A DNA stretch of 64,000 bases from Bdellovibrionota bacterium (GCA_044356455.1 JBIKWF010000006.1:4477-68476), one strand, 5' to 3'; shown: positions 4,339 through 61,203, counted from the first letter of the stretch. The notes: a model not told the origin generated them from the sequence alone. Program-made: numbers and translations.

Positions 4339-4478
4339 CCGAGGGAACCCGTTAAAAACCCCCATTCTTAATAAACCTCTGCGTACCTCCGCGTCCTCTG
4401 TGGTGAATTTCTACATTAAAATTTCACCACAAAGGACACAGAGGTAAACAGAGGTGAATTCTTCAAAGATTCCCTAAG
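4339..4478. repeat. Nested-palindrome MITE-like intergenic element, copy 1 (degenerate left end)
   Basis: Core cctctgtggtgaatttctacattaaaatttcaccacaaagg flanked by ...ctctg / cagagg... arms, ending in tccctaag. It lies between the convergent genes at 4324 and 4474. Confidence 0.7.
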
Positions 4479-4794
4479 CTTCAAAGCGCAGGAAGAGCGC
4501 ACCGACGTTAACCTCATCTCCTTCTTTCAAAGCGAGAGGCTTGCCGCGCTCCACGCGTACAGTTCGATTGAGAAAGGTACCATTGAGGCTACCGAGGTCT
4601 TCCACCGTAACAGCATTTCCCGACACTCGAATCATTGCGTGTTTGCGAGAAATTTTCGCCTCTGTATCTTCCGCTTCGAGATCTATCTCTGGAAATGCCG
4701 CATCCTCGGGGTCCCAGCGACCTATCAGGTTGGTGCCTTCAACGAGTTCAAATTCCCTTCCCTTGGCACTCCCGTTCATAAGAACCAATCGCAT
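4474..4794 (-). CDS. Small FHA-domain protein
   Basis: MRLVLMNGSAKGREFELVEGTNLIGR...ISRKHAMIRVSGNAVTVEDLGSLNGTFLN. ATG at 4794 is preceded by GGAGGA. The track ORF is longer (to 4908). Confidence 0.65.
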   Translation of the reverse strand: MRLVLMNGSAKGREFELVEGTNLIGRWDPEDAAFPEIDLEAEDTEAKISRKHAMIRVSGNAVTVEDLGSLNGTFLNRTVRVERGKPLALKEGDEVNVGALFLRFEA

Positions 4795-5640
4795 GAATTC
4801 CTCCAGTAGAACGGCATTATATAAATAATCGCCTCTTCCACCTAAGATTCGACACAATGCGGCAGAGACTATAGAGGAACTGAACCGAACCGGCGCGCTC
4901 AGAATCAAATAAGAAGGGGGAAAGTTAGGCTACCGCTGGTGAGCCAGGGGCCGCAAAGGCACCTCTCCTAGAATTTTACAACGCTTATGTGCTAGGATTT
5001 GTTATAAATTTACGTCCTCTGGTGGATTGCTTGGCTCAGAAAAGCGCTCTCCTCTGTAGGACCATTTTTAATGATTTACATTTTTACTGGGTCTGCGCGT
5101 AACCTTCTGCCTGAACTTTTTGGTCAGCCGCTTGGTTCCGCAAGACTTCTTTAGGCCACATCAGAAGCGACTGTTTCTGAGCTGGGCCGGACGTTTGATT
5201 TGTAAGGGATAGTGCATCGTGTCGATGCCCACTAAAAACTTAAGAGCCTTAAAGGCACCATCTTCCCAAAGGGAGACGGTGAGTGAGAGCGCTCCTGCGT
5301 TTGAATCTTCTCATGGGTCCTCTTTAACGAGGAACCTGGGACGAATCGTGGGCGAAATTATCTGCCAAACTAGTAGCGGTACTCAGAATCACCTGGCTCG
5401 CACGCAAGATTCACGAGTGCTCATAGTTAGCAGGGACGCGCGTTGCCTTACTTCCCTTACACGCAGCTCTCGCCCTGCGCGAGAACAAGCAGTTCCCTCT
5501 TTCGATGTCCCACCAAGGCATCCAAAGTCGCAACTCTTTAATCATTCGCGTCCGATACTGCCCATGAGCATGCGTTCACGCAGCATGCTGAGCTCAGCTT
5601 CACGCGCCTCTGAGTGGTCCAATCGTGGAGGAAAATCTCG

Positions 5641-7330: not shown

Positions 7331-7930
7331 TTAGAGAGAAGAGCGCTGCGTCGTAGGCCGACTTGCGCGATTGCCTTGCTCGGCAGCAATCCGGGCAAAG
7401 CGCTCTCCAATCTCAGCGATCAAAGCATCGCTCAGCGGTGCTGCAATCAGCACCTGAAGGCGAATTCGACCAAACGGACCGAGCTTATCCACCTCTCCAC
7501 GAGAAGTGCCCATCACGAGCGCATCCTTTTGTTCATCGGAAAGGGCCGCGGTGAAAGCCGCAGAGCGCCTCCCGGCAATGGGGAGTATGCAGGGCCAGAC
7601 TCGTTCTTTCGTAGAGCCCTCCAGGCACAGCGGCGCCCCCTCCCGCATCGGGAGCAGCTTGTCTGCGAATCGAAAATCAGCGTGAAGAGTTGCGATTTCA
7701 GCATCCATACGTGTGGCAAGTGACTCTAGAACTGGAATCACCGAGGCGCGCCACCATCCTGCTCGCGAGGCATCAGAGCCATCACTGGTGCGGGGATAAA
7801 CATCTCCCGCTGCTATGGAACACCACTCCCCTTTCGCGGTGTAACTCACATGTGAACTCACAAACCCCTCCCTCGGCGCCACGAATATAGAAAGAAGAGC
7901 CAGCGTAGTAAGAAAGATTCGATTCCGCAC
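7331..7930 (-). CDS. Hypothetical secreted protein (signal-peptide-like N-terminus); start uncertain
   Basis: The track ORF 7331..8077 begins inside the MITE copy, giving a repeat-encoded N-terminus (STTEGSEVHRG). A signal-like segment RNRIFLTTLALLSIFVAP suggests the start is near 7930, but the GTG there has poor spacing to its RBS. Confidence 0.35.
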   Translation of the reverse strand: MRNRIFLTTLALLSIFVAPREGFVSSHVSYTAKGEWCSIAAGDVYPRTSDGSDASRAGWWRASVIPVLESLATRMDAEIATLHADFRFADKLLPMREGAPLCLEGSTKERVWPCILPIAGRRSAAFTAALSDEQKDALVMGTSRGEVDKLGPFGRIRLQVLIAAPLSDALIAEIGERFARIAAEQGNRASRPTTQRSSL

Positions 7931-7980
7931 ACTCCCTCTATACTTCTGCCTTGCCGGTGGAAAAAAGCAGCGATCCCCAA

Positions 7981-8122
7981 CTAGGGAACCTCTGAAAAAC
8001 TCACCTCTGTGTACCTCTGAGCCCTCTGTGGTAGAATTTTCATGAAGAAATTCACCACAGAGGACACGGAGGTACACAGAGGTGTCTTCAGAATGAAGGT
8101 TTTTCAGAGGTGCCTTCCCTAG
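7981..8122. repeat. Nested-palindrome MITE-like element, copy 2 (best preserved)
   Basis: ctagggaacctctgaaaaac...cctctgtggtagaattttcatgaagaaattcaccacagagg...gtttttcagaggtgccttccctag. Perfect outer TIRs. The mreB stop lies in its right end. Confidence 0.8.
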
Positions 8123-9195: not shown

Positions 9196-10687
9196 ATCCT
9201 ACTTCCCTTTCGAGGCGTAGAACCGCAGACGATGTGTTCGCCCCTGCCCCCGCCTGAGAACTTGTACCCACCGCTCCGCCCATAGATCCTGCGGCAGATC
9301 CCGCTGAAGATCCTCTCGCCTGCGCTAGCGAACTCCTAAGCTCAGCGGGTTCCATGCTCGTGAGCTGCACCAGCTCTTCAACCGTCGCAGTCTTACGGCG
9401 CTTATCACGCCCCCCCGCTTTTACAAACTCAAACTGCAGCGCTTCGACACTCGCGGAACCGGAACGCGAAAGATGATGCGCAGAAACCGCTCGAATTCGG
9501 CTCTCATAGAAAGAAATCATCATATTATCGAGCGCAATGACGATATCGCCGTTGGCAAGTCGCACACAGGGAAAGTGCGGAGGTAAAATCTGCTGCACGA
9601 TTCGATACACCTGCTCAACGGCAGTTAAGGCCGCGCTCGTACCCGAAGTTCTCTCGAGCTCATGAAAATTCGTGGGCACAATCCGCGTTATCTCGAGCGA
9701 TTGAATGCCCACTGAGCGAGAAAGCTCAGAGGCTCGCCTGAGGAAAGAATGCCATGCCACATCAGGGTGAGCCCGCCCCTGCTGCTCAACCAGTAGTCCC
9801 ACGGTACTACTTACCTCACGCGCAAGGTCCTCCAGGAGCTTTCCCTGCAGCTTAGAAAAGGCAAATGACTTCTTACTATCGCAGGCAAGCACTCCCGTGA
9901 GGTGCTCCTGCTCGGCGCCCGAGGAGGCCAACATGCCGTAGGTATCATCGAGACGGATGGGGATACCTATGAAGCTCTTGAGTTGCTGATCGGAGGAGTA
10001 AATGCCTAACGTGCGGCTATCGAGTTCAAAGGGTGAGACGTGAATAGACCGCGCGTGTTTCGCTACCCAACCCACAAGACCATTGCCGCGAGACACCTGG
10101 CTGTGAGGAATGACTTCCGGACATAGGGAGTGGAAACCCGCCAGGACCATAGTATCCGGTACGCCCTCTGGACCCACGAGGCTTGGATCGAGAGCTGCAA
10201 TTACGCTGGCGTGAAAAAAAACAAAGCAGCTATGGGCATCAGCGAGATTCGCCCCGAAGCGCGCCAGTCGACAAAGATCGGCGTAGCCACGCTGAGAAGG
10301 AGTACCTGAAAGGGGATTGGTAGAGGACGCAGCTTGAAAATGAGGCGCTGAAAAAGCTGCGCGGTTTTCAAAAAGTGCAGAGTCTTTGCTTGGAGCAGCG
10401 TCTTCTCTTGGAGCAGCATCTTCTCTTGGAGCAAAGCCAGGACTTCGAGATGCAGGGCCACTCGCGCGCGCAGCAGCGGAACTTGCCGCGGGAGCTTCGA
10501 GGCGAGATTTCAACTCTTGCTTGGCATTCGAAGCGTGGGGAGAAGCAGCGCTGCGGGTGTTCCCGCCAAAGGCCCCCACTCCCGTGGTAACAGAGGTGCG
10601 AGAAACAGGACTGCCTATGGGGGTGCTCCGCGGTGAATTACCCGCTTCCGCCAAGAGGCGCTCTCTCGCAGCAGCATCTTTGCTCAT
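9176..10687 (-). CDS. GAF-like domain protein with S/A-rich disordered termini, overlapping the mreB start
   Basis: The central region (CFVFFHASVIAAL...GWVAKHARSIHVSPFELDS...GIPIRLDDTYGMLAS) is GAF-like. ATG at 10687 has a weak AAGAGA RBS. The track TTG at 10753 has none. Confidence 0.4.
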   Translation of the reverse strand: MSKDAAARERLLAEAGNSPRSTPIGSPVSRTSVTTGVGAFGGNTRSAASPHASNAKQELKSRLEAPAASSAAARASGPASRSPGFAPREDAAPREDAAPSKDSALFENRAAFSAPHFQAASSTNPLSGTPSQRGYADLCRLARFGANLADAHSCFVFFHASVIAALDPSLVGPEGVPDTMVLAGFHSLCPEVIPHSQVSRGNGLVGWVAKHARSIHVSPFELDSRTLGIYSSDQQLKSFIGIPIRLDDTYGMLASSGAEQEHLTGVLACDSKKSFAFSKLQGKLLEDLAREVSSTVGLLVEQQGRAHPDVAWHSFLRRASELSRSVGIQSLEITRIVPTNFHELERTSGTSAALTAVEQVYRIVQQILPPHFPCVRLANGDIVIALDNMMISFYESRIRAVSAHHLSRSGSASVEALQFEFVKAGGRDKRRKTATVEELVQLTSMEPAELRSSLAQARGSSAGSAAGSMGGAVGTSSQAGAGANTSSAVLRLEREVGYGYRRA

Positions 10688-11434: not shown

Positions 11435-13030
11435 TTAGGCATTCCGATTAGCGGGTGAATGATGCATAAAATTCAGTGCCTTAAGTCTATTTTGGCAAAT
11501 ACCCCTCGCCCTAAGGCCGACAAGAATCGCGACCAATCCAAGTATCAGGGCCCCCTCCCAAGGACCGCATTCGACATACACCCCAGGGAGGCGCGCGCAC
11601 TGCACCACCAGTTCACGAAGAAGAGTGAGCGCGTGCGCTACGACATCTAGGAGGAAGCCCGGCCGATCCAGGCCCCCTGCGCTAAGAACAAGCGCACCCC
11701 CACCGACTAGTGTACCTGAGACACTGAGCACAGGAGCAAGCGCAGGATTAAGCAAAAGCCCCCCAAGGGAGACAGCTCCGAACCAAACTGCCGCGAGCGC
11801 GAGGGGAATGAGAGTTGCCCAGAAAGACACACTCAAGAACGTTTCCACCTTCCCCTTGCCTCCTTCCGCCCCTAACGCAATGCCCGCAAGAGCCCCATAC
11901 GTGAGCTGCACTCCCGGCTCAAAGAGGGCACCGGGATAAAGCAGCAGAAGAATACAAAGTGAACCAAGAATAGACGTCCAAAGAGAACTCGATCGTTCAG
12001 AAAGCCTCCCGGCTACCACAAGAACCATCGCAATCGCTGCGCGCAAACTTGAACTATCAAAACCTACCAGCGCGACAAAAGCCGTGGTGAAAAGAAAAGA
12101 TGCAAGAGCTGGCAGACGCACCCACCAAGCACCACGAAGGCCACTCAAACGCAGCACTACTCGCATCGCCCCAAAGAGGAGCGCATAGACTAGTGATACC
12201 TGATACCCCGACAGCACAAGGAGATGCGACAACCCAGCCGCTCGAAACCCCGCTTCGGTTCGAAGGCTTAAAGAATCATGCTCACCAAGAGTAAGCGCGA
12301 GCACGAGCCCAGCTCTTTCGTGATTTCCAAGCACCGCAATGGCCTGATCCTTTATTCTTTCGCGCACGCGCTCAAAAAATCCAGGAACTCCGCGCGCAAG
12401 CCGCGCAGCGTAACGCACGCGGCACTCACCCGAAACTCCATGCCGGAGCAAAGTAGCCTCGTAACTAAACGGGTTCGAATTCCATGACACTGGCTGCACA
12501 TGGGCGAGAAAAACAAAGGTGTCTCCACGCACCATGCCATCTACTTCGCGCCAGGGAAGGTCCACGGCGCGGCACCGAAGGATTCGGGACCGAAGAAGAG
12601 ACTCACCCTCGGAAAATTCGCGCAGTACCTGAACCTCGAACTGGACACCACCTGGAACTCGGCGACGGGGGCCCTCCACGATCTCCCCAGCAAAACGCCT
12701 TTCACCTGGGACCAAGGGCTCAGATAAACCGGCCACAAGAAGTCCTAAACTGAGACACCCAGCAGCGACGCCAAGAACAAACGGAGCGCCCAGTGCTGAC
12801 CGAGACCACCTACTGAAGAAGCAAATCACTACGGCAAGTCCCACATAAGCAAATCCGAGCCAAGCCAGCATCTGCCCTACTACTAGTCCCAAAGTGACGG
12901 GGACAAGGGGGCAAGACGCACGTACCCGAGCGAACGCGCGCCTCGAAACTGACGTTCGAATTCCAGCAAGAAAAGAAAAATGAATCATGCGAGATTGCAC
13001 CATGCGATACGAGAGAAACGCCCCCCACAC
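11435..13030 (-). CDS. comEC: ComEC/Rec2-family competence membrane channel (competence domain only, no beta-lactamase domain)
   Basis: Polytopic membrane protein with the GLSHLLVLSGYQVSLV motif typical of ComEC. Confidence 0.65.
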   Translation of the reverse strand: MWGAFLSYRMVQSRMIHFSFLAGIRTSVSRRAFARVRASCPLVPVTLGLVVGQMLAWLGFAYVGLAVVICFFSRWSRSALGAPFVLGVAAGCLSLGLLVAGLSEPLVPGERRFAGEIVEGPRRRVPGGVQFEVQVLREFSEGESLLRSRILRCRAVDLPWREVDGMVRGDTFVFLAHVQPVSWNSNPFSYEATLLRHGVSGECRVRYAARLARGVPGFFERVRERIKDQAIAVLGNHERAGLVLALTLGEHDSLSLRTEAGFRAAGLSHLLVLSGYQVSLVYALLFGAMRVVLRLSGLRGAWWVRLPALASFLFTTAFVALVGFDSSSLRAAIAMVLVVAGRLSERSSSLWTSILGSLCILLLLYPGALFEPGVQLTYGALAGIALGAEGGKGKVETFLSVSFWATLIPLALAAVWFGAVSLGGLLLNPALAPVLSVSGTLVGGGALVLSAGGLDRPGFLLDVVAHALTLLRELVVQCARLPGVYVECGPWEGALILGLVAILVGLRARGICQNRLKALNFMHHSPANRNA

Positions 13031-13422
13031 TATCGAGGCTGATGCAGGAATGTTTCGTCTTAGGGCAAATCTTATTTCGCTAGCAATTTCGGCAGCTTAA
13101 GCCGAGAGCCTCGGTGATTCGCTTATGCGCAAGAGTGTTCTCCCGATGAAATCGCTGTGCTAGGATCCAGCGGTAAGACTCTTCAGAGAGCTCCTACATT
13201 ATTTCCCAGAGCGGCAGCACCGCTTTGGGCCCCCCACTGCGATAGCGTTCTAAACAGATTGGGGGGTGGTGTGTTGCTGGAGGCATAGGAGCCGACAGCA
13301 ATCGGAACGTAACATTGAATAAACGCGAAAGGGCTTTCCCAACTCACGCCTCGAATAACACCGAACATCGGTAAAAAGAGACCGGAGGGAAGGACAACTT
13401 TTCACGCACAAGGAGACCCAGC

Positions 13423-16020: not shown

Positions 16021-16178
16021 CTAAGGAACCTCTAAAAACCTTCATTCTTAAGACACCTCTGTGTACCTCTGAGTCCTCTGTGGTGAAATTTTCATGAAGA
16101 AATTCACCACAGAGGACACAGAGGTACACAGAGGTACACAGAGGTACACAGAGGTAAATTTTTCAGAGGTTCCCTAAG
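16021..16178. repeat. MITE-like element copy 3, with internal 4x tandem tacacagagg expansion
   Basis: ctaaggaacctctaaaaacc...cctctgtggtgaaattttcatgaagaaattcaccacagagg (acacagaggt)x4 ...tttttcagaggttccctaag. Confidence 0.8.
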
Positions 16179-18850: not shown

Positions 18851-18926
<76 letters not shown>

Positions 18927-18928
18927 TA

Positions 18929-19185
18929 TTTCCCGCTCGGCGCTCTGCCCAGGGACTCCGCCCCTCGCTTCGCTAATCGCTCGCACACCCCGTCCTCTTC
19001 GCTGGGCTTCGCCCTTCGAAGCTTTATTTACTTTGGCGACCCCATGCATTTCCCGCTCGGCGCTCTGCCCAGGGACTCCGCCCCTCGCTTCGCTAATCGC
19101 TCGCACACCCCGTCCTCTTCGCTGGGCTTCGCCCTTCGAAGCTTTATTTACTTTGACGACCCCATGCATTTCCCGCTCGGCGCTC
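18929..19185. repeat. 120-bp direct tandem repeat, 2 full copies plus about 15 bp, starting 2 nt after the tRNA-Thr CCA
   Basis: tcccgctcggcgctctgcccagggactccgcccc... recurs at 18931, 19051 and 19171. The unit end (gaccccatgc) resembles the tRNA 3' end (cccatgggcggctcca). Confidence 0.85.
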
Positions 19186-19383
19186 CGGTCCCCTTGCCCT
19201 TGGGACTCGAGCCCCGTCGAATCGAGACCGATTGGTAGGGCGCCATGTCCTCATGGCGCCGAAGATCCTTCGACCTGCGTCCATGCCCCTCCCCTGCCGC
19301 CACCAGAAGAACCTCTATATTCCATTTTTTCTCTCTGTACTTTCGGTGCCCTCTCTGATCTATCAGCACTTTAATCATCTACT

Positions 19384-19430
19384 TGAGGACACAGAGTTCA
19401 CAGAGAATGTCTTTTCAGAGACTCCCTAAG
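19384..19430. repeat. Partial (right-half) MITE-like element
   Basis: gaggacacagagttcacagagaatgtcttttcagagactccctaag. Confidence 0.55.
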
Positions 19431-19491: not shown

Positions 19492-19689
19492 ATGGCATTT
19501 GCAACCCCTAAGGCCCTCGCGATACTCGAGGTGCCATTTAAGGAAAAGGACGAAGCAAAACAACTTGGTGCGTGGTGGGACCCCACCATAAAGAAATGGT
19601 TTGTTCCGCTGGGACGCGACGTAGATCTCTTTAAAAAATGGATTCCTGAGGAGGAAACGGACTCTCAAGAAAGAACAGGAAATAGGTAG
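19492..19689 (+). CDS. Small stand-alone DUF5710-like protein (a domain otherwise found at primase/topoisomerase C-termini)
   Basis: VPFKEKDEAKQLGAWWDPTIKKWFVP matches the conserved DUF5710 motif. AGGAGA lies 7 nt upstream of the ATG. Confidence 0.5.
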   Translation: MAFATPKALAILEVPFKEKDEAKQLGAWWDPTIKKWFVPLGRDVDLFKKWIPEEETDSQERTGNR

Positions 19690-19751
19690 GGCGCGCCGTC
19701 CTCGGCGTGCCGGATATTTTGCGGCGCCCTGAGGACAGGGCGCCCTACCTG
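19684..19751. terminator. GC-rich imperfect palindrome (family-2 repeat) between convergent stops of the DUF5710 gene and fabH; probable bidirectional terminator
   Basis: taggtagggcgcgccgtcctcggcgtgccggatattttgcggcgccctgaggacagggcgccctacctg. Both stop codons lie inside the arms. Confidence 0.55.
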
Positions 19752-23679: not shown

Positions 23680-23922
23680 ATGATACGGCAGATTTTGCTA
23701 GCTTTTGTCCTGACCCTTCTCTTCCTGTTATCTGGCTGCAGCAGCTCAGCCTTGGGCGCACGCTTTACCTGCCTTGAATGGAAGGCTCAGGGGCTGATGT
23801 TTTCAACTCTCGACAGCTGCACAAAGTGTATGCAAGCCCACGGCCCCGCCAGCCTAGAGCAAGTACAGGGCTGTGCCCTTGGAATGGATGCCTCAGTGCT
23901 ACTTGACCTCCCCAACAGCTAA
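23680..23922 (+). CDS. Small Cys-rich lipoprotein
   Basis: Lipobox LLSGC. 80 aa with six further Cys. The stop lies in the left end of the MITE copy. Confidence 0.4.
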   Translation: MIRQILLAFVLTLLFLLSGCSSSALGARFTCLEWKAQGLMFSTLDSCTKCMQAHGPASLEQVQGCALGMDASVLLDLPNS

Positions 23923-24056
23923 GGAACCTCTGAAAAACTCACCTCCGTGACCTCCGCGCCCTCTGTGGTTAAATTTTCATGAAGAAATTCACCACAGAGG
24001 AAACGGAGGTGCACAGAGGTGTATTAAGATTGGAGGTTTTTCAGAAGCTCCCTAAG
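23919..24056. repeat. MITE-like element copy 4
   Basis: ctaaggaacctctgaaaaactcacctccgtgacctccgcgccctctgtggttaaattttcatgaagaaattcaccacagagg...ggtttttcagaagctccctaag. Confidence 0.8.
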
Positions 24057-41142: not shown

Positions 41143-42696
41143 CTATTTTTCCTCGGTTTGAGGGCCAAGCAACGTAATTGCAGCGGTTTTAGTTGACCCG
41201 TCTGATGCTTTAAGCTCGATATGAGCATGACCAATCCCTGAGGGCAACGCAGCTTGAGGAAACATCACAAAAAGCGGAAGTGTTTTCTCCTCCCCTGGCC
41301 CAACGGGATATGGGCTCTGAGGGACCGTAAGGGTTCCTTGTGAAAACCCAAGCAGCTTGGCTTCGTAAGTTTCAGTCTTCTTAGACTTATTGCCGATACG
41401 GGCGTGCAGGTGATTTACAATCATACCATGCTCAAGCGCGGAGAATGGTACATCTGCACCGCCGCGCACGACTTTAAAATCAGTCAATGAGCGAGAACTA
41501 AGCAGCGCAATAAACGAGATTCCTAACGCCAAAAGAAAACCAGCGTAAACCACTACCCGCGGCCTAACCCACGTGAGCCCCTCTCTGCGAAGTAAGTTTC
41601 TCTCGCTATCATATCGAATAAGACCAGGCGCACGTCCAACCTTCTCCATGACTGAGTCGCAGGCATCGATGCATTGGCTACACTGAATACACTCAAGCTG
41701 CAGCCCATTTCGAATGTCTATTCCTGTAGGACAGACCCTCACGCACAGTCCGCAATCTATGCAGTCCCCTGTTGTTTCTGCGCTATTCTGCTTTCCTCTT
41801 GGCTCTCCTCTCACCGGGTCATAGCCAACGATGAGTGAATTCGAATCAAGCAGTACAGACTGAAAACGCGCATAGGGACAAAGCACGGTGCAGAACTGCT
41901 CACGGAACCAGCCGAACTCAAAAAGCAGCACCGCCATGAGCACTAATGTAAGAGCAAACGGGAAGAAGTTCTGCTCCGGAGAATGCTGCATCATTCCGAT
42001 TAAGTTATCCCTACCCCAGAAATAGGCGAGGGCTGTGCTTGCGAGAAGCCAGGCAACTACTGCATAGAGTGTCCACTTCAGGCCTTTCTTGAGTACCCAC
42101 TCACTGGAAAATGGCTTTGAATCCAGTCGCAGGCGCTGTGCCGGTCCACCCTCAATGAAGCGCTCAATAGGCCGGAAAACGAACTCCAAGAAGACCGTCT
42201 GAGGGCACGCCCATCCGCACCACATTCGGCCAAGAAGAGCCGAAGCAAGAAACATAGTGAGCGCGAGGCCAGCGATGATAATAAAAAGAAGGACCGTATC
42301 AGTGGGATAGAAAGTAGTTCCAAAGAAGGTGAATTTGCGCTCCATGATGCTGAGCAGCACAGCCTGGTCCCCATGCACAGTAACCCAAGGGAGGCCAAGA
42401 TATATAAGAAGCAGCGCGCAGACGACGAGCACCCTTCTCTGGAACAGACGCCCTTTCACCAGGGCATTATATACCCAGTGGCGCTTTCCATCCTTCCCGA
42501 TGGTGTAAAGTGTCTCGCGAAAATCAAAATCGGTCGGAGACGGCGAACTCTGTTTCTTTGAGCTGTTAATTGAGACCGCAGTCTTATTTTTACAGCCACC
42601 GCTTCCACACGAGCCGTCTCCCTTGCAGCCCAGAGAAGAGGGGTGCTGAGAGGATGAGCTCGAAGAAGCGTGTTTTACGTCATGACCATCGCACAT
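41143..42696 (-). CDS. ccoG: cbb3 oxidase accessory 4Fe-4S protein CcoG/FixG with Cys-rich N-terminal extension
   Basis: CIDCGLCVRVCPTGIDIRNGLQLECIQCSQCIDAC ferredoxin motifs. FDFRETLYTIGKDGKRHWVY. ATG 42696 is preceded by GAGGGA. The track ORF start at 42912 lies in the MITE copy. Confidence 0.8.
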   Translation of the reverse strand: MCDGHDVKHASSSSSSQHPSSLGCKGDGSCGSGGCKNKTAVSINSSKKQSSPSPTDFDFRETLYTIGKDGKRHWVYNALVKGRLFQRRVLVVCALLLIYLGLPWVTVHGDQAVLLSIMERKFTFFGTTFYPTDTVLLFIIIAGLALTMFLASALLGRMWCGWACPQTVFLEFVFRPIERFIEGGPAQRLRLDSKPFSSEWVLKKGLKWTLYAVVAWLLASTALAYFWGRDNLIGMMQHSPEQNFFPFALTLVLMAVLLFEFGWFREQFCTVLCPYARFQSVLLDSNSLIVGYDPVRGEPRGKQNSAETTGDCIDCGLCVRVCPTGIDIRNGLQLECIQCSQCIDACDSVMEKVGRAPGLIRYDSERNLLRREGLTWVRPRVVVYAGFLLALGISFIALLSSRSLTDFKVVRGGADVPFSALEHGMIVNHLHARIGNKSKKTETYEAKLLGFSQGTLTVPQSPYPVGPGEEKTLPLFVMFPQAALPSGIGHAHIELKASDGSTKTAAITLLGPQTEEK

Positions 42697-42777
42697 AAAA
42701 GGTCCCTCGCGAAGTTGCCGCGCTACGTTCGCGACAGTCACCGCAATAAACTTGTCCCCCCCTCTTTGGAGCCTTAG

Positions 42778-42909
42778 CTTAGGGAACCTCTGGAAAACCT
42801 CTATTCTTAATACACCTCTGTGTACCTCTGAGCCCTCTGTGGTGAATTTCTTAACGAAAATTTCGCCATAGAGGGCCCACAGTGGGTTATTCAGAGTAGA
42901 CTCCTTAGG
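42778..42909. repeat. MITE-like element copy 6 (degenerate right half) inside the ccoP-ccoG intergenic space
   Basis: cttagggaacctctggaaaacc...cctctgtggtgaatttcttaacgaaaatttcgccatagaggg...cagagtagactccttagg. Confidence 0.7.
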
Positions 42910-42950
42910 CACCCACCAAAGAGCGAGATTATAAATGCCAGAGCGCCCTA

Positions 42951-43594: not shown

Positions 43595-43759
43595 TCAATC
43601 ATTCTTTTCATTTAGCGGCAGCTGCGAAGCCTCCTCGTAAGCTCGTCGCCGCGCGGGCCAATACACCCAGGCAACTACCGCAACAAAAAACACAAGGAAG
43701 AAGACAAGAGCAAATTGAGCCCATACGGGATCAACGAGCCCCTGTATAAACCTACCCAT
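43595..43759 (-). CDS. ccoQ: Small membrane subunit CcoQ/FixQ-like (54 aa), not in the ORF track
   Basis: Manual translation gives [60 protein letters not shown] lies 5 nt upstream. It overlaps the ccoNO stop by 8 bp. Confidence 0.5.
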
Positions 43760-45959
43760 TTGATCCTCCCCCTACTCCTTGAGCAACTTGCTGCGAGGCA
43801 CCCGACTTAATGTCGGTGCCAAGGCGCTGCATATAGGCAATAAGCGCAATAATTTCCATGCCACTCTTGCCCTTCGCATCGCTCATCCCCTGGGCGCTGA
43901 GACCATCGGCTATGGCTTGAGCTTGGGTCTCAAGGTCAGCTACCGCATTCTTGATTTGCTCATCGCTATAAGGAACTCCAAGCAACTTCATGGCAGCAAG
44001 CTTTGAGGAGGTAAGCGAAGTGCTCAGCTCGTTCTCATAGAGCCATGGATACGCGGGCATAATGGAACCAGGACTCGTGGAACGAGGATCCATCATATGT
44101 CTCCAGTGCCACAGGTCTGGGTACTTGCGACCTACACGGTGTAGATCAGGCCCTGTACGCTTCGAGCCGAACTGGAACGGATGGTCATACACAAACTCAC
44201 CTGGCTTCGAATACTCCCCGTAGCGCACGAGCTCATCTCTAAAGGGCCTTACCATCTGCGAGTGACAGTTATAACAGCCTTCTCGGAGATAGAGATCGCG
44301 GCCCTCAAGCTCGAGCGCCGTATAAGGATGGACCGAAGCAATTGAGGGAACATTACTCTGCACGGCCACCATAGGCACGATTTCGACAATTCCTCCCACG
44401 AGAACTGCAAGCATCGTGAGTACCGAGAAGAGCACTGGCCGAGCTTCAAGGTTATGATGGAAGGTATTGAGCCAGCCACGATTCCCGCCGGTAGCATTGG
44501 GACTCTTCGTTTGCTGGATTGCACGCGGAACTTCAACCGCAACGTCAGAGAGAGAATGTCCCGCCGCCTTGGAGGCCTGAATCGTCTTGGCGACGTTATA
44601 GACCATCAAGAAAAGCCCCATAACGTAGAGCGTTCCTCCGAAGAGGCGAATCCAGTAGAAGGGAATAAGCTGCGTAACGGTTTCGATAAACTCGGGATAT
44701 TTAAGGAGGCCTTCAGGAGTGAACGCGCGCCACATAAGACCTTGAGTAATCCCACCGGTCCACATGGAGGTCATGTAAATTACAATTCCAAGTGTGCCCA
44801 TCCAGAGGTGCGCCGCCATGAGCTTCTTGCTCCAGACAGGAACCTTCCAGAGTTGTGGAAGAAGCCAGTAGAACATTCCAAAAGTAAGGAAGCCGTTCCA
44901 CCCAAGCGCACCACCGTGCACATGTCCGATGGTCCAGTCCGTGTAGTGAGAGAGAGCATTAACACTCTTAATTGACATCATCGGCCCCTCAAAGGTCGAC
45001 ATGCCGTAGAAAGTGATACCCACTACGAAAAACTTGAGAATCGGGTCATCACGAAGCTTATCCCACGCTCCGCGAAGCGTAAGGAGGCCGTTAATCATAC
45101 CACCCCACGAGGGAGCGATGAGCATTATGGAGAAGAGCGCTCCCGTGGTCTGTGCCCAATCAGGCAGCGAAGTGTTGAGAAGGTGATGGGGACCTGCCCA
45201 GATATAGAGGAAAATGAGGGACCAGAAATGGATAATCGAAAGGCGATATGAATATACGGGCCGCCCAGCTGCCTTAGGCATGAAATAATACATGAGACCT
45301 AGGAACGGCGTCGTGAGGAAGAAGGCTACAGCATTGTGGCCATACCACCACTGAACGAGAGCGTCCTGAACTCCTGCAAATACCGGATAGCTCTTAAAGA
45401 GCGCCACGGGAAGCGCCAAGGAGTTTACGATGTGAAGCATGGCCACGGTAAGAATCGTGGCGATATAGAACCAAATCGAAACATATATATGCTTCTCGCG
45501 GCGCTTAATGATCGTACCGAAAAGATTGGCACCAAAAACCACCCACACTAATGCGATGGCGATATCAATCGGCCACTCAAGCTCGGCGTATTCCTTGCCA
45601 ACAGTAATTCCGAGAGCCAGGGTAACCGCAGCTGATACGATAATGAGCTGCCATCCCCAGAAGTGGATCTTGCTGAGAAGGTCTGAAAACATCCTAGCGC
45701 GCAGAAGTCTCTGAGCTGAGTAGTAAACCGCGGCGAATATGGCGTTACCAGCGAAAGCGAAAATTACCGCATTGGTATGTATTGGCCTTAAGCGGCCAAA
45801 GGTGAGGAAGGAAATCCCCATGTTAAGCGGCCAATACGCGAGCTGGGCCGCAATAATAACCCCCACCAACATGCCCACTACGCCCCACACTATAGAGGCC
45901 AAAAGGAACATGCGGACTGACTTATCGTCGTATCGAATGGTTTCAGTTTGTGCGTTCAT
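43752..45959 (-). CDS. ccoNO: Fused cbb3 oxidase subunits I+II (CcoN-CcoO)
   Basis: 735 aa. Twelve or more TM helices with His ligands. The C-terminal CcoO part carries CYNCHSQ haem-c. Confidence 0.85.
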
Positions 45960-53589: not shown

Positions 53590-53700
53590 ACGGCGCTTTG
53601 AGGACGGCGCGCCCCACCGAGTGGTGTGGCATCTCGGTAGGGCGCCGCGTCCTCGCGGTGCCGCAAGATCTCTCGCCCCGGCACGTGACAGGTATTTTTT
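53590..53700. repeat. GC-rich palindrome family-2 copy
   Basis: ...gaggacggcgcgcc...ggtagggcgccgcgtcctcgcggtgccgc... Confidence 0.4.
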
Positions 53701-53770: not shown

Positions 53771-53906
53771 CTAGGGAATCTCTGAACAAGTCCGCTCAGT
53801 GAGCTCTGTGTCCTCTGTGGTTGATTTAAATTGTTGAAAAACCACAGAGGACACAGAGCTCACTGAGAGAAAAAATAAAATAGCGATGTTTTTAGAGGTT
53901 ACCTAG
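53771..53906. repeat. MITE-like element copy 7
   Basis: ctagggaatctctgaacaag...gtcctctgtggttgatttaaattgttgaaaaaccacagaggac...tttttagaggttacctag. Confidence 0.7.
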
Positions 53907-53907
53907 A

Positions 53908-54837
53908 CTAATCCTCTCCTTCCGACAGCAAATCAGCACCCAAAGCCGCATAAGCAATTACCAAAAGGTCTGCCACCAGAAGGTGCAAAAGCTTGATCAG
54001 CACGGGCCCGCCGACCAAAAGAGTTATGAGGCCAAGAGCCAGCTGCCCAAACACAATATTACGCACTAACCGCGCCCGCCGGGCGAGCGACGCGCCCGCA
54101 TAGTTACTCATAACGAGATTTGTAAGCCAATAAAGATATGACGCGGCAATGAGGGATAGCATGGGGTGAAAAATGCGCAGCCTAATGAGAAGTGGCGACT
54201 CACGCGAGAAATCTGCCTCAAGACCCGCAAGAAGCGACTCCGTAGGATGGAGCATATTCGCCAAGGCGGCGACGACCCCTAGCATTCCAGATACCGCAAG
54301 AAGGACAAATCCCAACGCAAGCAACCCCCTCCACGCTCCGACTCGAGACAAGGAAAGATTTCGCTCGCGCGCAGCAAAAAAAACGGTGCACGCTTGCGCA
54401 GAGAGTAGCAGGAACGTATTGACCAAATGCGCGCCTAGAGAAACCACGCGGGCATAAGAGGTGCTCTGGTCTACCCAGCCGTAGAGGACAAGAATCGCCC
54501 CTAAAAGCGCCTCCGTGATCATCAAAACGAACGCGGCAAACGCGCAACTCCTCGCCAGATGACCTGGAGCGAATATTCTCCTTGCAAAAAATACGACCAA
54601 CGCTGACAGAAGAAAGACGACGCCTGACGTTAAGCGGTGGAGAAACTCAATAACAATCTCCATTCCGACGAACTGAGGAACGAGAACTCCCTTACATAAG
54701 GGCCAACTCTCTCCGCAGCCATCTCCCGAACCGCTAAGCCGAGTAAACGCGCCCCAAAGCACGACCAGCACAGTGAGACGCACGGTCCAGACTGCAAGTG
54801 AAACAAACTGTGTCTTTGAAAGAGAGGGCTTATTCAC
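53908..54837 (-). CDS. ctaA: Haem A synthase CtaA/COX15 family
   Basis: LVVLWGAFTRLSGSGDGCGESWPLCKG matches the CtaA N-terminal Cys-pair signature. Eight TM helices. Confidence 0.7.
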   Translation of the reverse strand: MNKPSLSKTQFVSLAVWTVRLTVLVVLWGAFTRLSGSGDGCGESWPLCKGVLVPQFVGMEIVIEFLHRLTSGVVFLLSALVVFFARRIFAPGHLARSCAFAAFVLMITEALLGAILVLYGWVDQSTSYARVVSLGAHLVNTFLLLSAQACTVFFAARERNLSLSRVGAWRGLLALGFVLLAVSGMLGVVAALANMLHPTESLLAGLEADFSRESPLLIRLRIFHPMLSLIAASYLYWLTNLVMSNYAGASLARRARLVRNIVFGQLALGLITLLVGGPVLIKLLHLLVADLLVIAYAALGADLLSEGED

Positions 54838-54850
54838 CAGAGAAGTGTAG

Positions 54851-55001
54851 CCCTAAGCGTGGTTTAGAATCCAGATCTCACGCTCCTGGGCACCGCCTAT
54901 GAAACTCACTTCTGTGCGCCTCAGAGTCCTCCGAGGTGAATTTCTTCATGAAAATTTCACCTCGGAGAACACGGAGGTCAGTTTTTCAGAGTCTCCTTAG
55001 G
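54851..55001. repeat. MITE-like element copy 8 (degenerate)
   Basis: ...cctccgaggtgaatttcttcatgaaaatttcacctcggagaacacggagg...tttttcagagtctccttagg. Confidence 0.6.
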
Positions 55002-55821
55002 AAGCCTTGCTCTCCTCTAGAGAGCTTACCAAGGATCCTGTGGGGTAGGCGCCTGGCTTTTCAGTAGGCTTCTCAACGGCCCCCTCATTCCCCTGTTGGC
55101 TCGAACGCTTGAAGGCTTCGTTCAATAATTTCAAATCACTCTCATCCACTATCCCGTTCTTATCGAGATCTCCGGCGCTATCATCTGTTCCAAACTTACC
55201 AAGCAGAATCGCTAAATCAGCTCCATCAACGCCCGAGTTGCCGTCGAGATCTCCAAAGGTCCCCTTCTTCTCTTCGGGAACTCCAGGAGCATTCTTCTCT
55301 GTTGAACGTTTAAAGGCTTCGTTTAGAAGCTTCAGATCGCTCTCGTCTACCTTTCCGTTCTTATCAAGATCGCCTGCGCTATCTTCGGTTCCGAATTTCC
55401 CCAGAAGAATTCCAAGGTCGGCGCCATCAACTGTTGAATTTCCGTCCAAGTCTCCGAAGACCCCCTCTCTCTCTTTTGTGACTTCTGGCTTGCTGGAATT
55501 GCCACCGCTCACTCCAAGAGTAGGATCTTGCTCGCTTACAAGTCGCCTGCGGCGGTCATAGGTAGGTTTCGCTTCTTCGCTAAGGCGAATTCTTACAGGG
55601 TCTGATTTGGTTTCAGCTTCTGACCCAATCTTTGACTCGAGCCGCTTTGAAATACCCTCCGAAGTGAGCTTTGCCTCGGTAGTACGCTCTCGCAGACGCG
55701 CAAATGGTGAATTGCTGAGTTCTATTTTCATTCGGGTTCCCTCCCAAAGTAGTTTATTCCGTGAGATAGCCTCCGGTGGGCGACGGCGGCAGCGCTCCTT
55801 GCAAATGTGGTAACGACACAT
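54997..55821 (-). CDS. Protein with two tandem dockerin-type-I-like Ca-binding repeat modules
   Basis: GDLDGNS(T/G)VDGADL(G/A)ILLGKFGT(E/D)DSAGDLDKNG(K/I)VDESDLKLLNEAFKRS occurs twice, about 73 aa per unit. Confidence 0.5.
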   Translation of the reverse strand: MCRYHICKERCRRRPPEAISRNKLLWEGTRMKIELSNSPFARLRERTTEAKLTSEGISKRLESKIGSEAETKSDPVRIRLSEEAKPTYDRRRRLVSEQDPTLGVSGGNSSKPEVTKEREGVFGDLDGNSTVDGADLGILLGKFGTEDSAGDLDKNGKVDESDLKLLNEAFKRSTEKNAPGVPEEKKGTFGDLDGNSGVDGADLAILLGKFGTDDSAGDLDKNGIVDESDLKLLNEAFKRSSQQGNEGAVEKPTEKPGAYPTGSLVSSLEESKAS

Positions 55822-61165: not shown

Positions 61166-61203
61166 CACCGCACGGCACCCTGAGGACAGGGCGCCCTACC
61201 TGA
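61166..61203. repeat. GC-rich palindrome family-2 copy (near-identical 25-mer to 19722-19751)
   Basis: caccctgaggacagggcgccctacctg. Confidence 0.5.

Follow-up and report, generated by a model that had tools for sequence, protein, structure and literature searches.

The Correia (NEMIS) elements of Neisseria and the ERIC elements of enterobacteria are abundant intergenic palindromes of ~100-150 nt that are co-transcribed with their neighbours, and Correia elements are bounded by 26-nt terminal inverted repeats (TIRs) with a TA duplication. Other short, non-coding intergenic elements, namely MITEPgRS/MITE464 and BrickBuilt in Porphyromonas gingivalis and ATR in N. meningitidis (the latter with ISNme1-type ends), carry TIRs that match those of IS5-family ISs, and BrickBuilt also displays internal tandem repeats and long stem-loops (PMC4596501). 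Regarding IS5 itself, insertion takes place at 5'-YTAR-3', a four-base target (PMC5009759).

The repeats here presented were found in a window of 64 kb, this term referring to the whole stretch of 64,000 nucleotides analysed, and were compared with these described systems. They resemble Correia and ERIC elements in being abundant, intergenic, palindromic and of ~100-150 nt, but they have no sequence similarity to them, reside in another host lineage, and combine a 16-nt IS5-type TIR with a 4-nt duplication. The Correia/ERIC resemblance proposed in the preliminary description is, in this way, a generic one that holds for small palindromic intergenic repeats at large, while ends, duplication length and target assign the family to the IS5 group. 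With the Porphyromonas and Neisseria elements the family shares its short, non-coding and intergenic nature as well as TIRs matching IS5-family ISs, and with BrickBuilt also the internal tandem repeats and the long stem-loops (PMC4596501). On the contrary, those elements have a different TIR (GAGACC...) from another IS5 subgroup and duplications that are variable or unclear, whereas the window family shows a clean 4-nt YTAR duplication and 10-nt units arranged as a palindrome.

The likeness to IS5 of E. coli comprises a 16-nt TIR starting with GGAA and ending in AA(C/G), a 4-bp duplication on YTAR (PMC5009759), and TIR-sharing autonomous partners of ~1.2 kb with a single DDE transposase gene, the differences being that the window elements are only 110-149 nt long, non-coding, and with an interior unrelated to that of IS5. 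Since ends, duplication length and target match those of IS5, the elements are very probably non-autonomous MITEs of the IS5 group of the IS5 family. The family, although undescribed, is in no way exceptional among mobile DNA of this already known type.

A profile built from the eight copies of the preliminary description recovered the same eight (E 1e-42 to 1e-26) and a weak copy ending near 19430 (E 1e-6), with no match in the 64 kb beyond these eight strong and one weak copies. Similarly, the 20-mer CTAGGGAACCTCTGAAAAAC gave 10 matches in the window at ≤3 mismatches versus 0.01 expected from shuffles. The presence of at least eight full copies, far above chance, is thereby confirmed, and the window family numbers eight full copies, plus a decayed one, of a palindromic element of 110-149 nt. 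Coordinates for the full copies also stood, except that the one placed at 54851-55001 starts at ~54887, its left end being decayed. What had been taken for a partial copy at 19384-19430 is really a decayed full-length one extending over ~19308-19425. The copies, with their flanks, are as follows.

7981-8122, focal copy with both target-site duplications: CTAG 7981-7984; left TIR 7985-8000; three 10-nt units 8003-8032; loop region 8033-8053; three units 8054-8083; 15-nt spacer 8084-8098; right TIR 8099-8118, with a 4-nt insertion; CTAG 8119-8122; 8119-8121, read on the opposite strand, form the mreB stop codon
4340-4477, copy in the opposite orientation, element 4344-4473: left TIR decayed (GGAACCCGTTAAAAAC) with left flank CGAG; the right flank, CTAA 4474-4477, contains the stop of an FHA-domain gene (4474-4908, minus strand)
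16021-16177, copy, element 16025-16173: CTAA on both flanks; one arm enlarged to five 10-nt units; located 27 nt past the stop (16205) of an ABC-transporter ATPase gene
19308-19429, decayed full-length copy: right TIR GGAGTCTCTGAAAAGA (reverse complement) ending at 19425, then CTAA 19426-19429
23919-24055, copy, element 23923-24051: CTAA on both flanks, the right one (24052-24055) containing the msrB stop
37171-37308, copy, element 37175-37304: both TIRs perfect, CTAA on both flanks; between divergent genes for a calpain-like protease (35490-37124, minus strand) and an RNB-domain protein (37452-39497, plus strand)
42779-42908, copy, element 42783-42904: TTAG on both flanks; in the ccoP-ccoG spacer of the cbb3 oxidase cluster
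53771-53906, divergent copy, element 53775-53902: CTAG on both flanks; the ctaA stop (53908-53910) lies 1 nt beyond the duplication
54887-55000, copy with decayed left end, element 54887-54996: right flank TTAG 54997-55000, which contains the TAA stop of a 274-aa dockerin-domain gene

The eight full copies can be aligned end to end, with copy-to-copy identities of 60-87% (median 71%), and in the decayed copy at 19308 the left half is hardly recognisable. Because of this range of identities, the several decayed ends and the lack of a transposase in the window, the copies are regarded as an old, partly decayed family and not as a recent burst. Two of them stand apart: the copy at 53771 carries a private variant, GCTCAGTGAGCTCTG, in both arms, and that at 54887 shows compensatory changes in its central hairpin (CCTCCGAGG / CCTCGGAG). 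The private changes of the 53775 and 54887 elements, each present in both arms, suggest that these copies may derive from distinct source lineages. The elements, of 110-149 nt, have no coding capacity, and ORFs running through them are gene-caller artefacts.

Termini were then inspected at the nucleotide level. The inverted termini, originally put at about 20 bp, are real, but their outer 4 nt are a direct target-site duplication and the TIR proper is 16 nt long, GGAACCTCTGAAAAAC. It is perfect at both ends of the 37175-37304 element and shows 0-3 differences at most other ends; the right ends at 8118 and 42904 contain short insertions, decay affects the left ends at 54887 and 19308, and every recognisable window copy has IS5-type ends or remnants of them. 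Inspection for target-site duplications, outward from a conserved GGAACC, revealed perfect 4-nt direct repeats of the YTAR type in six of the eight copies (CTAG at 7981; CTAA at 16021, 23919 and 37171; TTAG at 42779; CTAG at 53771), the left end being decayed in the remaining two. Ends falling on CTAG and CTAA, as reported at the outset, were thus found, together with TTAG, but the tetramer is the duplicated YTAR target and does not belong to the TIR.

Scanning of public metagenome contigs with the 19-nt end TARGGAACCTCTGAAAAAC yielded at least 120 loci. Across all loci, and among the matches listed, the 4-nt flanks of TIR pairs were identical in 40/64 and differed by one base in 21/64, the flanking tetramers being nearly all CTAA, TTAA, TTAG or CTAG. 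When the identical tetramers among these listed matches were sorted by orientation, 26 were direct repeats and none was inverted, while 17 were palindromic and uninformative. This duplication result is not built into the search, given that the scan pattern demanded TAR at just one side and played no part in the choice of the window copies. The elements had first been read as a MITE of the IS630/Tc1-mariner type, with a TA duplication and a longer TIR starting with R, a reading for which speaks the presence of TA within all ends, CTAG being the classic IS630 target. It was rejected as having next to no probability, on account of (i) the non-palindromic CTAA and TTAG, directly repeated in 26 cases and inverted in none among the matches listed, and (ii) the autonomous partners, which encode IS5-family and not IS630-family transposases.

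These partners emerged from the sizes of the inverted TIR pairs, which form two classes, mostly short ones of 39-277 nt and at least 10 pairs lying 1147-1270 bp apart. Each of the latter elements contains one ORF of ~315-340 aa. The ORF products match the NCBIfam IS5-family transposase NF033581 with 312-355 bits (cut-off 140; two proteins scanned), as well as the Pfam domains DDE_Tnp_1 (PF01609) and DUF772 (PF05598) (three proteins scanned). The seven that were compared with InsH of E. coli IS5 share 43-53% identity with it. Among the matches listed, a transposase gene is present in 24/120 of the TIR-selected loci, and two contigs carry the IS and MITEs together. Regarding the ends themselves, that of IS5 is GGAAGGTGCGAATAAG, and an IS5-family copy from Marinobacter, which has CTAA on either side, ends in GGAAGGTCTGAATAAC; the window TIR, GGAACCTCTGAAAAAC, is a variant of the IS5 end, matching IS5 at 9/16 positions and the Marinobacter copy at 13/16. 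The initial view of an abundant MITE-like family is therefore upheld by the TIRs, by the 4-nt target-site duplications and by autonomous partners with the same ends.

None of the ten sampled ISs shares its interior with the elements, only the TIR being in common, so that the element is not a simple deletion derivative of any of them. By tblastn, no IS5-like transposase was detected in the window or in ~90 kb from relatives and family-carrying MAGs. From the comparison of ends and targets we infer mobilisation in trans by an IS5-group transposase in this organism: an IS5-like DDE enzyme, encoded elsewhere, would bind the 16-bp TIRs and insert the element at 5'-YTAR-3', whereby the four target bases would become duplicated.

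Between the TIRs, each arm consists of three to five tandem 10-nt units (ACCTCTGTGT, ACCTCTGAGT, CCTCTGTGGT), usually three and five in one arm of the 16021 copy, and the arms flank a central hairpin of the form CCTCTGTGGTGAA-loop-TTCACCACAGAGG. Most copies have an extra spacer of 13-15 nt in one arm, which gives those copies an orientation. Folding energies of the elements range from -75 to -87 kcal/mol, with z values of -11 to -13.6 relative to dinucleotide shuffles on either strand, decayed copies being weaker, and a hairpin of ~60 bp is expected in any transcript that crosses an element, whichever its strand. The nested-palindrome architecture of the preliminary description is accordingly real; the central palindrome, described there as perfect, is so in some copies but not in others. 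Compensatory changes affect only 5/37 pairs, which makes covariation weak, and arm-arm identity within a copy (0.80-0.95) is no higher than that between copies (median 0.83). Neither covariation nor the arm comparison thus provides evidence, among the window copies, of selection on hairpin structure. At the gathering score of Rfam only tRNA-Thr passes in the window, and a permissive Rfam search returned only sub-threshold miRNA-precursor matches, as produced by generic long hairpins, and nothing specific.

Their intergenic and palindromic character, together with their location at gene ends, would also agree with REP/REPIN repeats moved by a RAYT tyrosine transposase, or with unrelated ordinary terminators. 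Nonetheless, the window family has common 16-nt ends and 4-nt duplications, which REPs lack; its arms are tandem 10-nt units and not individual REP hairpins; no GTAG motif is present; and a separate GTAG-containing REP-like family occurs in the same window. Ordinary terminators without shared termini are excluded by the conservation of both termini and interior, and this whole proposal was rejected as scarcely credible.

The second repeat family of the window is a GC-rich hairpin, GGTAGGGCGCCnTGTCCTCAnGGCGCC, with a GTAG-type head that resembles REP/REPIN and with two inverted doublets; its pattern gives 3 matches in the window versus 0 expected by chance. Its hairpins are located as follows.

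19234-19260, plus strand, REP-like hairpin
19685-19711, plus strand, REP-like hairpin
19723-19749, minus strand, REP-like hairpin
53592-53618, minus strand, REP-like hairpin
from 53636, plus strand, REP-like hairpin
61173-61200, minus strand, REP-like hairpin

Regarding gene context, two of the eight copies of the MITE-like family lie between convergent genes, one between divergent genes and five in tandem pairs, with one copy inside the ccoNOQP-ccoGH cluster and another 50 nt upstream of ctaA. Stop codons had been reported inside the element termini. This is the case for the FHA gene (4474), mreB (8119), msrB (24052) and the 274-aa dockerin-domain gene (54997), all four within the duplicated YTAR tetramer, but the ctaA stop falls 1 nt outside. 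Pre-insertion sequences were reconstructed across all loci to obtain insertion-site statistics, for which gene calling was crude. Among the matches listed, insertions are rarer in coding sequence than YTAR sites are (15/69 vs 60%, p = 1e-10), and non-coding insertions are commoner at stop codons than expected (13/54 vs 7.9%, p = 2e-4). The simplest reading of the gene-end position combines the YTAR target preference with purifying selection. YTAR includes TAA and TAG, and any such stop codon with a preceding pyrimidine would thus be a target; the gene-side copy of the tetramer would keep the stop intact, making an insertion at a gene end harmless and likely to be retained, while insertions within genes would be purged. 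The apparently precise occupation of gene ends reduces in this manner to a simple mechanism, a YTAR target plus a stop-preserving duplication.

A different account of the same position is that the family has been domesticated as a host-selected 3'-end module, whose long hairpin, with the U-run of the TIR (GUUUUUC) behind it, would terminate transcription or would stabilise or process mRNA. Consistent with it, the hairpins are very stable on both strands, UUUUU stands within 2-3 nt downstream of the stem when read from mreB and from msrB, four of the eight copies abut a stop codon, and stop-codon sites are used ~threefold above their availability. Contexts are, however, mixed (two convergent, one divergent, five tandem), orientation relative to the upstream gene is inconsistent, arms are no more alike within than between copies with covariation being weak, and the U-run is part of the TIR common to all the families and to the ISs, so that selection for termination is not needed. 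We regard this module as quite unlikely. A terminator scan of the first 20 kb, which contain three copies, found no hairpin formed by an element's own arms and a total no higher than in shuffles, and the one terminator-like match that reaches into a copy (7990-7972) is formed between flanking DNA and the left edge of the copy at 7981. By analogy with other MITEs, roles as terminator, stabiliser or RNase III site are plausible (review PMC10969869), and the elements, taken as IS5-group MITEs, may have an effect on mRNA 3' ends.

The copy described as sitting inside the ccoP-ccoG operon is indeed there, in a spacer of 254 nt that measures 14 nt in two relatives (CcoP 59-61% identical), where the element is absent; the 20-kb loci of these two relatives contain no IS5-type TIR. 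Neither empty sites nor polymorphic insertions were encountered: the exact CcoP protein led only to one other sample of the population, which is identical, and the relatives used for comparison have only ~60% protein identity. At window 42696-42912, the gene call of JGI sample 3300059473 makes ccoG 589 aa long from a GTG and reads through the element. The same DNA in another sample gives 517 aa from the ATG at 42696, which is probably the true start, the element adding a false N-terminal extension of 72 aa. An ORF at 7331-8077 is similarly extended through the mreB-proximal copy. In the same cluster CcoN and CcoO are fused in one ORF of 735 aa with COX1 and FixO domains (window 43752-45959, minus strand), a fusion also present in the relatives L129 and L132.

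Features resembling the interior of the elements were also found in other phyla, and the core may have its own history. When a window copy was compared by blastn with plasmid records, it matched only repeats of Bacteroides finegoldii, and the same units occur in two Gemmatirosa megaplasmids, at 18 and 13 places (31). The B. finegoldii repeats have termini of ~30 nt, TTCACCACAGAGG(ACACAGAGG)2, in which the two arms of the window core have changed places. Both they and those of Gemmatirosa kalamazoonensis share with the window family TTCACCACAGAGG followed by tandem ACACAGAGG units in inverted arrangement, and an intergenic location, often beside stop codons. They differ in that the CAGAGG arm comes first, units are of 9 nt (10 nt in the window family), the interior is variable (40-150 nt), and neither IS5-type TIRs nor a clear duplication are present. 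Elements with swapped arms were located in L134, L136, L137 and L141 (B. finegoldii) and at 3001-3083 of L138 (G. kalamazoonensis plasmid 1), and the literature searched holds no description of CAGAGG-unit repeats.

Such similarities would be expected of a composite element, that is, of a CCTCTG/CAGAGG core which is an independent cross-phylum foldback repeat, with its own mobiliser or host function, captured by IS5-type ends, and this is compatible with the elements being IS5-group MITEs. To the repeats of the other phyla can be added (i) the TIR-less cores in relatives, at 12748-12874 of L132, upstream of an integrase gene, at 5733-5841 of L003 and as a variant in L130, and (ii) the restriction of inverted unit arrays to this family and L132 when ~870 kb of other DNA were surveyed. 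Nonetheless, the matches between phyla involve short, repetitive stretches (22-36 nt, E ~2e-3) and may reflect chance or convergence; neither a mobiliser nor a target-site duplication came to light for the Bacteroides and Gemmatirosa elements; and every recognisable window copy bears IS5-type ends or their remnants. Homology of the window core with the Bacteroides and Gemmatirosa repeats is suggested by the shared units, and would be putative, while a composite origin is considered unlikely. Stated in its fullest form, the core would be a foldback module, a TTCACC...GGTGAA hairpin enclosed by an inverted array of tandem CCTCTG/CAGAGG units of 9-10 nt, occurring across a Bdellovibrionota-like lineage, Bacteroides and Gemmatirosa, having a putative mobiliser of its own or a role in binding a host factor, and captured in this lineage by IS5-type ends, a proposal that we hold to be rather improbable. 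Within this proposal, the CCTCTG units, being repeats of the TIR core, might serve as candidate extra transposase-binding sites.

The TIR-less, core-like hairpins of L132 (12748-12874) and L130 (~12990-13070) immediately precede a phage-type integrase gene, behind which come higB/HTH toxin-antitoxin genes. They are preceded by a conserved TTAGAAAACCAGAACTAGAAAACTGGTTTCC, and may mark the border of an integrative element.

The distribution of the elements was explored separately for the TIR and for the interior. Short elements bounded by the same 16-nt TIR comprise at least 13 interior families, one of them having 34 members among the matches listed, and the contigs carrying this TIR span 25-68% G+C, their transposases being 39-61% identical to each other (among the matches listed). 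One same-TIR family of ~140 nt accounts for 34/57 short elements (L007-L126, among the matches listed), with several copies per contig in metagenome Ga0153956 and weaker relatives in Halomonas and Pseudomonas plasmid records. On the side of the interior, a search with TIR plus core pattern in a genome collection without the host genome found real copies of the window family in only two MAGs, labelled "delta proteobacterium" and "Bdellovibrionales", with related copies at loci L002 and L003. The shared 16-nt end, GGAACCTCTGAAAAAC, points to a large TIR-defined superfamily, on which the literature searched holds nothing and which could be catalogued; its breadth, along with the cross-phylum CCTCTG/CAGAGG core, constitutes the remaining interest of the family. 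Searches for MITEs in Bdellovibrio or Bacteroides retrieved no description in the literature covered, and exact-sequence matches led only to unrelated papers.

Regarding the host, the nearest CcoP homologue beyond the window's own protein is only 61% identical, which places the host in a poorly sampled lineage, and the NCBI names of homologues of 48-53% identity point to MAGs of Bdellovibrionales, Oligoflexia or Deltaproteobacteria. The population represented by the window is present in JGI samples 3300059473 and 3300042518 and in SRR11646531; a search for empty sites by way of the 274-aa dockerin-domain protein found no record of it. In SRR11646531, the contig with an identical mreB (L001) has its 3' end 60 nt into the mreB-proximal copy, consistent with a multi-copy repeat breaking the assembly. 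As illustrated by L001 and by ccoG, the elements break short-read assemblies and mislead gene callers.

Some other repeats were observed in the window. At 18926-19186 a 120-nt unit is repeated ~2.3 times in tandem with 99% identity, starting at the 3' end of tRNA-Thr(CGT) (18851-18926). Each unit displays a terminator-like hairpin, GGGCTTCGCCCTTCGAAGCTT, and then a T-rich tail, and the array may have arisen as an integration scar or through slippage. The dockerin-domain gene contains, at 55103-55488, two copies of a 185-nt repeat spaced 201 nt, and two other ORFs have tandem repeats with units of 18 nt (10367-10450) and 15 nt (1289-1363), these in-ORF tandem repeats probably encoding repeated protein segments.
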